Assembly (NCBI GenBank): GCA_963663765.2
Contig: CAXXUA010000013.1
Span: forward strand, 1-64,000
Length of the DNA stretch: 64,000 nucleotides
Source: Candidatus Poribacteria bacterium
GTDB taxonomy: Bacteria > Poribacteria > WGA-4E > WGA-3G
Direction of reading: 5' to 3'
The position numbers and the translations under genes are program-made. How positions within the stretch are numbered: position 1 is the stretch's first letter; every line of letters starts with the position of its first letter. The notes beneath the pieces are model-generated. The model had not been told where the DNA came from, did not search any database, and saw nothing but the letters and a program-made list of their open reading frames with translations. This document shows, one piece after another, positions 2,313-16,247 of the stretch.

Positions 2313-4541
2313 ATGGAGATTAAAATTATGAGAAAAAGATACTTAATGATTCTATTAACGATATTCTTATCGGTCACAAATAGTTTTGCCCAAGATGCAT
2401 CAAACTTGGGTTTACCGGATGGTGCAAGGGCGCAGCTTGGGAATGGTAAGATAACTAGTAATATTACATACTCACCAGATGGTGATAAATTGGTTGTGGC
2501 AACTAATTTTAGTGTGCTGACTTTTGATACAAAGACAGGTGAAGAATTGGACAAATTTGCTGGTCATACAGCGTCTGTCAATAGCGTCGCATTTAGTCCT
2601 GATGGTACAGTGCTTGCAAGTGGAGGTAATGACGAAACCATCCGTTTGTGGAACGCAAACACAAAAGAACATATACGCACGTTATCGGGTACTGTAGCCC
2701 CAGTCAGCAACGTATCGTTTAGTCCGGATGGCAACACAATCATAAATGGGAATGGCGATTATACTGTCTGTTTGTGGAATGCAAATACAGGTGAACATAT
2801 CCGAACATTAACAGGACATACGGACCGGGTCTATAGCGTTGCATTTAGTCCAGATGGCAACACAATCGCAAGCGGGAGTGGAGACAAAACCATCCGTCTA
2901 TGGAACACTGATACAGGAGAAAACATACGAACATTAACAGGACATACGGACCGGGTCTATAGCGTTGCATTTAGTCCAGATGGTAACACAATCGCAAGTG
3001 TAAGTGGGGTAAACACCATCCAACTGTGGAATGCAAATACAGGTGAACATATCCGAACATTAACAGGACATACGGGCAGGGTCTATAGCGCTGCATTTAG
3101 TCCAGATGGCAACACAATCGCAAGCGGGTGTGGAGACAAAACCATCCGTCTATGGAACACTGATACAGGAGAAAACATACGAACAATCACTGGTGTTGAG
3201 TCCGATATTAGTGGTGTATCATTTAGTCCTGATGGTAATACAATCGCAAGTGTAAGTTGGGTAAACACCATCCAACTGTGGAATGTGAATGATGGTGAAA
3301 ATATACGCACAATCACATTAGAAGGTCACGCACATTTTGTCGAAACAGTAGCATTTAGTCCAGATGGCACCATGATCGCAAGTGGTGGTAAAGACAGTAC
3401 AATCCATTTATGGAATGCCAAGAATGGTACACATATACACACACTAAATGAAAGTACTTTCGGTGTCATAACTGTAGCGTTTAGTCCGGATAGTAATACC
3501 CTCGCAAGTGGAGGTATTGAGCGTGATATCCGCTTGTGGGATGCAAACACAGGAGACCATATCCGAACATTATCAGGACATACGAGTGAAATCTATAGTT
3601 TATCATTTAGTCCTGATGGGAACATACTTGTCAGTGGAAGTCGTGACAGAAGCATCCGTTTGTGGAACGCAACCACAGGAGATATTATCCGCACACTGAC
3701 AGGACATACGGGTTGGATCAACAGCATCTCTTTTAGTCCGGATGGGGACATGTTTGTCAGTGGAAGTGAGGACAGTACAATCCGCTTTTGGAATACAACC
3801 ACAGGAGCACATATACGGACACTATCAGGACATACGGGTGGGGTCAAAAGCGTCTCTTTTAGTCCGGATGGTACAGTGCTTGCAAGCGTAAGTTCGGACA
3901 ATACCATTCGTATGTGGAATGTGGAAGATGGTAATCATATCCGCACACTATCAGAGAATATTAACGGGTCAGGTCGTGGCAATACATTTAGTCCTGATGG
4001 GAATACAATTGCAGCCCCAGGTACATTATTTCTTGGATCTATCAATTTGTGGAACACAAAAGATGGTTCACTCTTTAAGACACTAACCGGACATCAGGGA
4101 TGGGTTACAAGCATGGCTTTTTCTCCCGACGGACGCACCCTCGCAAGTGCAAGTTATGATTATACTGTGCTGTTGTGGGATATTGAAATTGATGATACGC
4201 GTGCAGTTGATCCAAATGGTAAGACTTACACTAAGTGGAGTAAGATAAAAACGACTGCAGTTTTTCAGAACTATCCTAATCCATTCAATCCTGAGACATG
4301 GATACCCTATCATATTGATAAAACAACTAACGTAAAACTAACGATTTTTGCATTAAACGGTACAGTTGTCCGCAACCTTGAACTTGGATATAAACCATCA
4401 GGCTTTTATCTCGACAAACAACATGCCGCATATTGGGACGGTAAGAATAATTTTGGTGAAACTGTAGCGAGTGGAGTCTATTTCTATACACTGACTGCAG
4501 GAGATTTCACTGCAACAAAAAGGATGTTAATTCTGAAATAA
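2313..4541 (+). CDS. Secreted WD40-repeat protein with C-terminal FlgD-like/T9SS-type-A-like domain
   Basis: Signal peptide (..TNSFAQD); ~13 GH-x-V-x-SVAFSPDG...IRLWN repeats; C-terminal QNYPNPFNPETWIPY...WDGKN...SGVYFY. Confidence 0.92.
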   Translation: MEIKIMRKRYLMILLTIFLSVTNSFAQDASNLGLPDGARAQLGNGKITSNITYSPDGDKLVVATNFSVLTFDTKTGEELDKFAGHTASVNSVAFSPDGTVLASGGNDETIRLWNANTKEHIRTLSGTVAPVSNVSFSPDGNTIINGNGDYTVCLWNANTGEHIRTLTGHTDRVYSVAFSPDGNTIASGSGDKTIRLWNTDTGENIRTLTGHTDRVYSVAFSPDGNTIASVSGVNTIQLWNANTGEHIRTLTGHTGRVYSAAFSPDGNTIASGCGDKTIRLWNTDTGENIRTITGVESDISGVSFSPDGNTIASVSWVNTIQLWNVNDGENIRTITLEGHAHFVETVAFSPDGTMIASGGKDSTIHLWNAKNGTHIHTLNESTFGVITVAFSPDSNTLASGGIERDIRLWDANTGDHIRTLSGHTSEIYSLSFSPDGNILVSGSRDRSIRLWNATTGDIIRTLTGHTGWINSISFSPDGDMFVSGSEDSTIRFWNTTTGAHIRTLSGHTGGVKSVSFSPDGTVLASVSSDNTIRMWNVEDGNHIRTLSENINGSGRGNTFSPDGNTIAAPGTLFLGSINLWNTKDGSLFKTLTGHQGWVTSMAFSPDGRTLASASYDYTVLLWDIEIDDTRAVDPNGKTYTKWSKIKTTAVFQNYPNPFNPETWIPYHIDKTTNVKLTIFALNGTVVRNLELGYKPSGFYLDKQHAAYWDGKNNFGETVASGVYFYTLTAGDFTATKRMLILK

Positions 4542-11094: not shown

Positions 11095-12372
11095 ATGCAA
11101 GTTGATATGAGATATGGTCATAGCACTGTTTCCGTAGAAATTCCAGATAAGAATTTAGCTGCTGTGTTGGAAACGAGGGAAAGCACTCCGTTAGCTGATG
11201 AAGACAAAGCAGTACGCGATGCAATCATGCAGCCAATTGCATCCCAACCACTATCAGAAATTTCTAAGGGTAAGAATTCTGCATGCATTGTAATCTCAGA
11301 TATTACACGACCAGTACCTAATAAAGTCATTCTTCCACCGATGTTGGAGATACTTGAAGAAAATGGGGTACAACGTGAAAAAATTACAATCTTGATCGCA
11401 ACAGGTATTCACCGTCCAAATGAGGGTGATGAACTTGAGGAACTGGTTGGTCGATCAATAATGGACTCTTACCGCATAGTCAACCATTTTTCTCAAAAAC
11501 CTGACACACACACTTTTCTTGGTGAAACAAAAAACGGTACACCGGTTTTTATTGACAAGACATACCTTGAAGCCGATTTAAAAATTGTGACCGGATTGAT
11601 TGAACCCCATTTGATGGCAGGTTATTCTGGTGGTAGGAAAGCAATATGTCCAGGACTCGCTTCTGTTGAAACGATGAAGGTGATGCACGGACCTGAATTG
11701 ATGGAACATCCAAATTCTGCTGTTGGTATATTGGATGGAAATCCATTTCACGAAGAAGCAACCGAGATCGCGTTGATGGCTGGAGTAGACTTCAGTCTAA
11801 ATGTAGCAATAGACAAACAAAGAAAAATAATGGGAGTCTTTGCAGGAGATGTCGTTGAATCTCATCTTAACGGTGCAAAATTCGTTGAAGAACAAGCGAA
11901 AGTGACGATCCCCGAACCTGTTGATGTTGTGGTAGTTTCCAGTGCTGGGTATCCTTTGGATTCTACATTTTATCAAGCAATTAAAGGGTTGTTGACTGCG
12001 TTTGAAATCGTCAAACAAGGCGGTAGTATTTTGCTCGTTGCTGCTTGTAGTGAAGGCATTGGAAGCAAACCATTTACAGATCTACTTTTTAAGACTGATG
12101 ACTTAACTGCATTTGTGAACGGACTATACAATCCAGCAAACTTTGTGATTGATCAGTGGCAACTGGAAGAATTGGCAAAAGTTGCACGTAAAGCGGATAT
12201 ATATTTTTATACGGATGGTATACCTTATCAATATAGATCAAAATTATTTGTACATCCTTTAAATAATCCTCAAGAAGGTATTGAAGAATTTCTAACTCGA
12301 TACGGAAAGGATGTCAAAATTGCAGCGATACCAGAAGGTCCTTATGTTTTAGCTAAAGTGAACAGTGGATAA
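11095..12372 (+). CDS. larA: Nickel-pincer-dependent lactate racemase family protein
   Basis: SDITRPVPN, ATGIHR, IEPHLMAGYSGGRKAICPG, GYPLD-x-TFYQ. Confidence 0.9.
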   Translation: MQVDMRYGHSTVSVEIPDKNLAAVLETRESTPLADEDKAVRDAIMQPIASQPLSEISKGKNSACIVISDITRPVPNKVILPPMLEILEENGVQREKITILIATGIHRPNEGDELEELVGRSIMDSYRIVNHFSQKPDTHTFLGETKNGTPVFIDKTYLEADLKIVTGLIEPHLMAGYSGGRKAICPGLASVETMKVMHGPELMEHPNSAVGILDGNPFHEEATEIALMAGVDFSLNVAIDKQRKIMGVFAGDVVESHLNGAKFVEEQAKVTIPEPVDVVVVSSAGYPLDSTFYQAIKGLLTAFEIVKQGGSILLVAACSEGIGSKPFTDLLFKTDDLTAFVNGLYNPANFVIDQWQLEELAKVARKADIYFYTDGIPYQYRSKLFVHPLNNPQEGIEEFLTRYGKDVKIAAIPEGPYVLAKVNSG

Positions 12373-14194: not shown

Positions 14195-14453
14195 TAATGA
14201 CAAATTTACTGACACATAATAGAATAAATGTTTACGCGGTAATATAGAATTTGTTCAATACACCATTATGTAAATGAATAACTCAGAAATGAAATTAAAA
14301 ATAATAGAAGCTCAATTGGCATTATGATGTATTTTCAATATGATTGAGCAATTTGTTATCTAAACTTTCCATTTCCCACATAAACCTAAAAACAATAAAA
14401 AACCAATATTGAAATCGCTTGCAATAAACAAGAACCCTATCATCCATGTGAAA

Positions 14454-15485
14454 ATGAAAATCTATCAAGTAATACAATCATATCTATTCCTTCTCATGCT
14501 ATTCTCAATTACATTCAACGCAACAGCTGAGAATGAAAAAGATCCAATACGTACCCTATTGCCTTATGATGCGATTCCCGCAATAATAAAGCCGCAATTT
14601 GTTTCATCGACTAAAGCAAAAATAGATGCAGATGCTCCCGTTATTGGTGTAAATTTCAATGACGAAAGTCATGCTTACTCGCTATATATCCTGAACGCAC
14701 ATGAGATCGTCAATGATGTTGTCGGTGGTAAAAAAATCGCTACTACATGGTGACCACTCTGCAATACCGCTATCGTGTATAGCAGGGAAATTGATGGTAA
14801 GACCTACACCTTTGGTGTCAGTGGTAAATTGTGGCGTGATGCCTTGTTGATGTATGATCATCAGACGCGATCCTTGTGGTCACACATCACAGGGGAAGCC
14901 ATACAGGGGAAACTGAAAGGCAAAAAATTGACGCCGCTTATATCTATGCCACAGATTGCTTGGAAAACATGGATGGCAAATTACCCACAGACAAGAGTAT
15001 TGTCAGTCAGAAACCAAGAAAGTCTGGAAAGAGATAATTATGCTAACTACCACAAGAGTCAACGTGCCGGTGTGAGCGGGACTCAATACACAGACAAGAG
15101 ATTACCCAACAAATCCCTTGTGATTGGTGTTCAAATTAAAGACAAGAATGGAAAGAAACATTATCGTGCATATCCACTCACGCAATTTGCAAAAACAGCG
15201 TTAATCCAAGACACAGTTAACGGTGTTGCTTTATTAATATTTCACAACAAGGATTCTTTTGCTACTGCAGTCTACAAACGCAATGTAGATGGAAAGGTTG
15301 AGAACTTTGAACTCAAAGATGACTACCTTAGCCAAGATAGTCAAGGAAGACAGTGGAATCTCATCACAGGTAAGGTAACATCAAGTAAGCAACAGGATGT
15401 GTCCTTAGAGCGGTTAACTGCCCTCAACATCTATTGGTTCGCTTGGGCACGTTTCTATCCGAATACATCAATTTACAAGCCTTAG
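14454..15485 (+). CDS. DUF3179-family exported selenoprotein (UGA at 14751-14753 read as Sec)
   Basis: ORFs 14409-14753 and 14775-15485 share a frame; the junction reads IATTW-[TGA]-PLCNTAIVYSR; DAIPAI-x-x-P-x-F, HEIVND, FGVSGKL, MYDHQT-x-SLW, YWFAW-x-x-FYP are DUF3179-like. Confidence 0.85.
14754..14797 (+). promoter_or_regulatory. Putative bacterial SECIS hairpin
   Basis: CCA...CAAT-A-CC-GCTAT-[CGTGT]-ATAGC-A-GG-GAA-ATTG-A-TGG; the apical loop starts 20 nt after the UGA and has G at its second position. Confidence 0.7.
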
Positions 15486-16247
15486 TCAGTCGTCCAATAC
15501 AACAACTTCTCCTGTCATATTTCGGTACATTGTCGGACGGATAATCAATTCTGGTATGTTGCTACGTATAGGCAGCGTTGCTATGAGAAGAATCGCTTCG
15601 GATGTCTCAGCAACATCAACCATCATCGTGCGTGCATCAGAATCTGGTGGAATTGGACGATTGTCCAGAATCGGCGTTGCTACCTCACCCGGTATAATCA
15701 CGCTTGCTCTAATACCGGTATTCCTTAAGTCATTGTTCAGAAATTCTGTAAAGTTGATGACACCTGCCTTCGCTGCACCATAAGCAAAACCACTAAATGG
15801 TCCTGGTGTTACTGCTGCAAGTGATGAGATGTTGATGATCGTACCAGACTTTGCTTTCAGCATTGAGGGTACAACTGCTTGCGTGCAGTAAAACGTTCCT
15901 ATCAGGTTTGAATTAATGACTGACTGAACCTCTTCAGGTGTCGTATTGAGGAGTCTACGATTAAATGAACTGTGTCCAGCATTGTTCACAAGCACATCAA
16001 TCTGTCCGAATCTTTCAATCACATCGTCAACCATTTTTTTAACTGCATCATAGTCTGCAACATCCAGGGAGTAACTAACTGCTGTTCCACCATTGGTCAA
16101 AACTTCAGATTTGACGTCATCCAGTTTGGATTCAGTTCTACCGACAATGACCACTTTAGCACCTTCTTGTGCTAATTTCATAGCGGCATCACGACCAATA
16201 CCACTCCCACCACCAGTGATGATACACACTTGTTCATTTAGTCTCAT
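15486..16247 (-). CDS. SDR family oxidoreductase
   Basis: TGGGSGIG, NNAG, YGAAK catalytic motif. Confidence 0.93.
   Translation of the reverse strand: MRLNEQVCIITGGGSGIGRDAAMKLAQEGAKVVIVGRTESKLDDVKSEVLTNGGTAVSYSLDVADYDAVKKMVDDVIERFGQIDVLVNNAGHSSFNRRLLNTTPEEVQSVINSNLIGTFYCTQAVVPSMLKAKSGTIINISSLAAVTPGPFSGFAYGAAKAGVINFTEFLNNDLRNTGIRASVIIPGEVATPILDNRPIPPDSDARTMMVDVAETSEAILLIATLPIRSNIPELIIRPTMYRNMTGEVVVLDD

Follow-up and report, generated by a model that had tools for sequence, protein, structure and literature searches.

An in-frame TGA in a DUF3179 gene of Candidatus Poribacteria is predicted to encode selenocysteine in an exported protein of two Rieske-like modules

Introduction

Does the TGA codon that separates two neighbouring open reading frames of a Candidatus Poribacteria contig end a protein, or does it encode selenocysteine (Sec) within a longer one? 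The locus lies in a 64,000-nucleotide stretch of DNA, the whole of which is referred to hereafter as the window, on contig 13 of a genome of 6.35 Mb (15 contigs, 97.8% complete). A first-pass annotation, made from the letters of the window, proposed that the two frames together encode a selenoprotein of the DUF3179 family, and stated that Sec versions of this family had already been annotated. Two reviews bear out the latter statement, both tabling DUF3179 (pfam11376) as a prokaryotic selenoprotein with a 'UxxC/T' motif (PMC9312934, PMC13188914) and both citing Zhang and Gladyshev 2007 (PMC1976440). No family is called DUF3179 in the passages available from the 2007 paper; DUF3179 presumably corresponds to one of its 'OS_HP' families, although to say which one would be a guess. 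Sec use by the DUF3179 family is thus already known, and the window gene is a further member. The available passages of PMC9312934, PMC13188914 and PMC1976440 contain no function, fold, SECIS analysis or distribution in Poribacteria for DUF3179. A search of the full-text literature on DUF3179 returned nothing on function, and one on selenoproteins in Poribacteria returned hydrogenases only; in both cases, supplements may hold more.

Results

Two open reading frames form one DUF3179 gene

The two listed open reading frames, 14409-14753 and 14775-15485, share a reading frame, are parted by the TGA at 14751-14753 alone, and are one gene [Table 1]. Read-through translation from the ATG at 14454, a start which agrees with that of a full-length Cys homologue (P0003), placed T-T-W-U-P-L-C at residues 97-103, as expected from the earlier proposal of one frame in which a single TGA yields W-U-P-L-C. 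The read-through protein matched PF11376 (DUF3179) in Pfam from residue 39 to residue 338 and over profile positions 2-292 of 292, scoring 257.5 bits where the cut-off is 27 (E 2.3e-76). The gathering cut-off is thereby passed across the entire domain, which places the protein in DUF3179, and the full-length match indicates that the domain spans the TGA. No NCBIfam family matched the read-through protein, nor did any PDB chain in a sequence search at E up to 1. A genome-wide search returned the window gene as the sole DUF3179 match of this genome. Gene callers cut the gene at the TGA and report a 236-residue tail alone, as they do in most relatives; this product, like many relatives of 214-240 residues, spans 61-69% of the read-through protein.

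Table 1 Features of the DUF3179 locus (positions in the window).
Feature	Positions	Strand	Details
Whole DUF3179 gene, predicted selenoprotein	14454-15485	+	ATG 14454, Sec codon 14751-14753, stop TAG 15483-15485; 343 residues
Putative signal peptide	14454-14528	+	Residues 1-25, hydrophobic in the core; A-T-A followed by E (by eye)
N-terminal Rieske-like beta module (modelled)	14637-14981	+	Residues about 62-176; U100xxC103, H83-E84-x-x-N87-D88
In-frame TGA, probably read as selenocysteine U100	14751-14753	+	Aligns with Cys; same codon in relatives
U-P-L-C motif (U100, C103)	14751-14762	+	The protein's only Cys/Sec residues
Alternative hairpin, this copy only	14757-14787	+	MFE fold; lower stem 14757-14762/14782-14787, loop CUAU
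SECIS-like hairpin, conserved register	14767-14785	+	Stem 14767-14773/14779-14785, loop CGUGU 14774-14778
C-terminal Rieske-like beta module (modelled)	15117-15455	+	Residues about 222-334; without Cys

The TGA is conserved among relatives and aligns with cysteine

Of 41 genomes from the genus and order of this organism, its own among them, 37 contained DUF3179, and each of the 37 had a match with a single in-frame TGA, two of these matches being partial. The TGA occupied the same codon, in the context TW-TGA-PLC, in 30/30 fetched loci. A scan of one genome per species, seeded by a 14-sequence alignment and returning records mostly titled Candidatus or uncultured Poribacteria, found TGA in 79 loci out of 80 and TGT in the remaining one (L093); the 30- and 80-locus counts are not independent, since the organisms are related and some genomes probably occur in both sets. 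In the exceptional locus (L093, about 4290-4360), which has TGT (Cys) at the site, the letters of the hairpin described below are unchanged, suggesting a recent Sec-to-Cys change. Two genomes harbor a second DUF3179 match without internal stop (G032:C1:5551874-5552704 and G029:C1:4265684-4266556); these are probably Cys paralogues.

The first-pass annotation had also asked whether sequencing data show TGC or TGT at this codon; the assembled DNA contigs of two studies show TGA. Over 14300-15600, these contigs matched the letters of the window with no difference, and either study may be the source of the assembly. Contigs from RNA libraries covered 14300-14444 and 14922-15101 only, leaving the TGA uncovered, and the two RNA runs look like a single data set filed twice. 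Two DNA runs also yielded an extra contig of 35-39 letters lying exactly on the TGA and hairpin (14748-14783), with three differing letters and a depth of 65 and 442, against 3.9 and 194; it may represent a segment common to co-occurring relatives.

The residue held at the TGA position by more distant homologues was read from a 70-sequence alignment, consisting of the query and 69 diverse full-length homologues hand-picked from the best 150 of 8750 representatives and from a second search. Position 100 is Cys in 64 of the 69 homologues and Ser in the other five, whereas position 103 is Cys in 55/69 and A, S, T, V or R in the other 14. Six full-length homologues with an ordinary Cys align TWCPLC over TW-U-PLC. 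The U thus falls on a conserved Cys, the first of the (C)PLC motif, an alignment that the first-pass annotation had put forward as a check, and the UGA stands, as in bacterial selenoproteins, at a position otherwise held by Cys. Other near-invariant residues of the alignment are H83, E84, N87, D88, D135, W142, W328 and W331. On these comparisons, the UGA at 14751-14753 is very probably decoded as selenocysteine.

The genome carries the selenocysteine machinery

Inspection of the genome for selA, selB, selC and selD, another check suggested at the outset, found all four, each above its curated cut-off: selA (620.8 bits), selB (361.6 bits), the tRNA-Sec gene selC directly 3' of selB (78.5 bits), and selD (367.6 bits; C2:220603-221529), which has an in-frame TGA of its own in the context CAG-U-ASK. 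In addition, the genome has 24 AhpC-TSA matches, of which 9 contain one in-frame TGA. These nine, on contigs C5, C6, C8 and C15, present the TGA in U-x-x-C-type contexts, including W-U-P-Y-C, W-U-P-F-C and L-U-P-N-C, and a hairpin is predicted after each. Judging from these genes, the genome appears to be rich in selenoproteins and the organism to make wide use of Sec.

A conserved hairpin follows the TGA

The hairpin originally described downstream of the TGA, with a GCTAT/ATAGC core enclosing a CGTGT loop, was found as described (GCTAT at 14769-14773, CGTGT at 14774-14778 and ATAGC at 14779-14783), its loop starting 20 nt past the A of the TGA; the proposed CC/GG extension is also present, with a bulged A in the constrained fold. 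In 30 orthologues the 7-bp stem CGGCUAU/AUAGCCG was paired in 98.6% of 210 cells, and sliding the 3' partner by 1-3 columns reduced pairing to 14-43%. Three of the stem pairs are invariant, two depart by mismatches only and two vary one-sidedly, from G-C to G-U in 10 sequences and from A-U to G-U in one; no two-sided change was seen at any stem pair of the 30 orthologues. A shuffle control was uninformative, the observed pairing being reached by 30 of 500 shuffles. Constraint on synonymous sites is stronger evidence for the hairpin than pairing is. Normalised codon entropy is 0.07 over the five codons T105-A-I-V-Y109, whereas the gene averages 0.72; none of the 200 five-codon windows (204 scored codon columns) has a lower value, and the eight lowest-entropy windows all overlap the stretch from P101 to L113. 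Of the four codons with zero entropy, three (I107, V108 and Y109) fall within the hairpin, across its loop. Comparable elements occur elsewhere in the genome. Nine other TGA genes were examined, and in six of them a stem of 6-7 bp begins 17-18 nt from the U of the UGA and encloses a small loop that contains a G, a placement like that of the window stem (start +16).

The copy in the window departs from this pattern. It has ACC and AGG where 28/30 orthologues have G and C at the paired letters (typically ACG and CGN). These synonymous changes hit both partners of stem pair 2 (14768/14784), which becomes a C·A mismatch, and they give rise to pairs of a different register. The conserved register is predicted at -10.2 kcal/mol against -14.5 kcal/mol for the best fold, with a pair probability for the conserved stem of about 0.001. 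The earlier hairpin therefore stands as the register conserved in orthologues but not as the predicted best fold of the window copy. The best fold itself, the tetraloop of which is without G, was rejected as the conserved SECIS, only 72.1% of its cells being paired in the 30 orthologues. Pair 2 seems to be dispensable, as it is also mismatched in three other loci (L046, L103 and L120).

Stability was not unusual, with a z of -1.47 for the 66-nt fold (18/200 shuffles as good) and of -0.3 to -1.1 for the 45-nt folds of four relatives. No Rfam family matched anywhere in the window at gathering scores, and relaxing the search to E up to 10 over 14700-14860 returned merely two chance-level rows. 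The UGA is nevertheless followed, as in bacterial selenoproteins, by a SECIS-like hairpin which is conserved among orthologues and coincides with the lowest synonymous diversity in the gene, with the reservations that no stem pair changes on both sides and that the copy in the window is weakened.

The protein is probably exported and modelled as tandem Rieske-like modules

An AlphaFold model built with 70 sequences (pLDDT 93.5, pTM 0.88) consists of a helix at residues 3-18, a low-confidence linker and two beta-rich parts. The helix is hydrophobic and, together with the A-T-A/E site noted by eye, fits the original description of the protein as exported; orthologues likewise have signal-peptide-like leaders, with an L-x-G-C lipobox in at least 5 of 30 (by eye). 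From its N-terminus, the protein is likely to be exported.

Modelled alone, the N-terminal module reached a pLDDT of 96.4 and gave as its best fold match a Rieske ferredoxin (2qpz_A, Z 8.1, rmsd 3.2, 92 residues aligned), rows 1-43 of the matches consisting entirely of Rieske-type proteins. The C-terminal module matched Rieske domains at Z 9.3 (3gkq_A, rmsd 2.4, 83 aligned) and up to 9.5, so that both modules resemble the Rieske fold at Z 8.1-9.5, values to be read with the caveat that a common arrangement can be enough for a Z of about 8. Foldseek matches were weak: neither model had one at E up to 0.001, the best E of any row was 7.5e-3, and the best Rieske row had 1.6e-2. Aligned with one another by hhalign, the N- and C-terminal modules matched with a probability of 99.9% (E 9.5e-35, 122 columns), U-P-L-C falling on N-K-D-S in the second half; by this profile comparison the two modules are homologous and would form a tandem pair.

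The ligand motif of Rieske proteins is CxH...CxxH. No such CxH/CxxH cluster ligands are present in the window protein, in which U100 and C103 stand alone and the C-terminal module is Cys-free; the absence of the ligand set makes this a Rieske-like fold, not a Rieske protein. U-P-L-C does have the form of the CxxC-type motif of thioredoxin-fold oxidoreductases. No thioredoxin-type match was obtained, however, in Pfam at E up to 0.01 or among the listed fold matches, and the fold of DUF3179 appears, as modelled, to be Rieske-like rather than thioredoxin-like.

In many orthologues (P0018, P0022, P0024, P0047, P0056 and P0098), the C-terminal module contains a collagen-like insertion of G-X-Y repeats, located before YRAYPL at a site corresponding to about 15140-15165 of the window; the window copy is without it. 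PF01391 was found in three such orthologues, and genes of this kind appear as split matches.

The gene neighbourhood was considered as a clue to function and rejected. The DUF3179 gene is preceded by minC, minD and minE; on its downstream side are an SDR gene, convergent with it, and a PhyH gene. Among 30 loci, minD/minE occur only in that of the closest relative (L038). An SDR gene adjoins DUF3179 in 73 loci of 80 and a PhyH gene in 50, both on the opposite strand and convergent. No redoxin or CcdA gene was observed among the neighbours, and no redox partner adjoins the DUF3179 gene. Just upstream of minCDE, a homologue of LarA-type lactate racemase (Lar_N, LarA_C) was observed at 11095-12372.

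Redoxin fusions point to a possible redox cycle

The DUF3179 family comprises 8750 cluster representatives at E up to 0.001. Thirty-two long homologues were picked by length from two homologue searches, and in 10 of these DUF3179 is preceded by an N-terminal AhpC-TSA/Redoxin domain; other domains among the 32 are CarboxypepD_reg (3), WD40 (1) and fn3 (1). Each of five fusions examined has a hydrophobic N-terminus or membrane anchor and, further on in its redoxin part, WCPFC or WCPPC, the motif of the DUF3179 part being TYCPLC in four and SYCPLC in one. Two further long proteins combine several copies: P0122 (1587 aa) contains five DUF3179 stretches and fn3 repeats, and P0123 (1004 aa) two DUF3179 domains that come after a redoxin domain. 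An architecture of this type is that of membrane-anchored extracytoplasmic reductases of the TlpA/ResA type joined to their client, and the thioredoxin-Msr fusion PilB is an example of a redoxin fused to the enzyme that it serves.

In the mechanism that we propose, SelB and tRNA-Sec would decode the UGA at 14751-14753, guided by the short SECIS hairpin 13-34 nt downstream, and the protein, made of two homologous Rieske-like beta modules of which the first bears U100-P-L-C103, would be exported. Outside the cytoplasm, the U100 selenol would attack an oxidised substrate, C103 would resolve the adduct to form a selenenylsulfide with U100, and a separate TlpA/ResA-like redoxin would re-reduce this bond. 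Many such redoxins are present in the genome, nine of them with a TGA, and the first Cys of the motif is more conserved in homologues than the second (64/69 vs 55/69). We regard the arguments for and against this redox cycle as evenly balanced. More tentatively still, and with the odds somewhat against it, DUF3179 may represent an unrecognised class of extracytoplasmic selenol/thiol oxidoreductases built on a duplicated Rieske-derived module and recycled by TlpA-like redoxins.

U100 and C103 might instead form, with H83, E84 or D88, a metal site on a Rieske-derived module that would serve as chaperone or sensor for Cu, Zn or Fe, the TlpA-like redoxin, fused or separate, only keeping the ligands reduced. 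TlpA does so for the ligands of Sco1, and the redoxin fusions fit this possibility equally well. The likeness of the fold to the domains of Rieske metalloproteins (Z 8.1-9.5) also favors it, as does the conservation of H83 (67/70 sequences), E84 (65/70) and D88 (68/70); the strand order of the model would be expected to place H83/E84 near U100. However, the second Cys is replaced in 14/69 homologues and the first by Ser in five, which is unusual for a metal site, and it is the frequent loss of the second Cys that disfavors this reading. Sec, moreover, mostly stands in for a catalytic redox Cys, and no twin-arginine leader was seen by eye in the N-terminus, suggesting that no preassembled cofactor is exported. 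A metal site thus appears unlikely, although it is the best placed of the alternatives, and we retain the redox cycle as the working proposal.

Discussion

Taken as a whole, the observations are best explained by an exported DUF3179 protein with a Sec-decoded UGA and the proposed redox cycle, an overall account in which we have good confidence. Were the TGA instead a true stop, the locus would be a pseudogene or would consist of two genes, one for an exported peptide of 99 residues and the other for a protein of 236 residues started at GTG 14775. Gene callers do report the downstream piece only, and relatives of 214-240 residues look alike in this respect. Against this, the same TGA is flanked on both sides by conserved protein in 79/80 loci and the one exception has TGT, the Pfam domain crosses the codon, Cys forms are continuous, the Sec machinery is present, and synonymous variation is restricted immediately 3' of the TGA, all of which makes a stop highly improbable. 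Bacteria are known to read UGA as Trp or Cys by near-cognate decoding, but nothing specific favors insertion of Trp, Gly or Cys here through a changed code or suppressor, and it is more improbable again, given that homologues hold Cys and neither Trp nor Gly, that a dedicated tRNA-Sec and selB are present, and that TGA, which closes 273 of 1513 stop-to-stop frames of at least 400 codons and 8 of the 30 orthologous DUF3179 genes, is an ordinary stop of the standard code in this organism.

With selenocysteine as the preferred reading of the TGA, two points are new relative to the tabled family. The DUF3179 domain is modelled as tandem Rieske-like modules without cluster ligands, and long homologues include fusions to a putative N-terminal TlpA-like redoxin (10/32). 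Combined with the Sec/Cys site, they provide a testable starting hypothesis for the large DUF3179 family. Should DUF3179 prove to be a new oxidoreductase class of this kind, the near-universal Sec form in the sampled Poribacteria would suggest that the redox task matters to these organisms. This genome and those of most relatives also under-report selenoproteins, since callers cut at the TGA and many database matches cover only the fraction of the protein noted above.

Bacterial SECIS elements are represented by the fdhF type of E. coli and by the bSECISearch consensus. Like these, the hairpin studied here lies directly 3' of the UGA, within the coding sequence, and has a G in its apical loop; unlike them, it has a short stem (7 bp, or 5 bp plus a mismatch in the window copy), no bulged U was seen in it and no Rfam model matched it. 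Each half of the protein shares the fold of Rieske ferredoxins and of the Rieske domains of oxygenases, whole ferredoxins being covered, whereas DUF3179 is without the CxH...CxxH set of Rieske proteins. The window protein differs from TlpA/ResA-type fusions in having neither a redoxin domain nor an adjoining redoxin gene, yet the 10 fused homologues follow the same plan, with an anchor, a WCxxC redoxin and a domain with its own CxxC. With the DUF3179 selenoprotein tabled in PMC9312934 and PMC13188914, the protein shares both the Pfam family (PF11376) and the UxxC motif.
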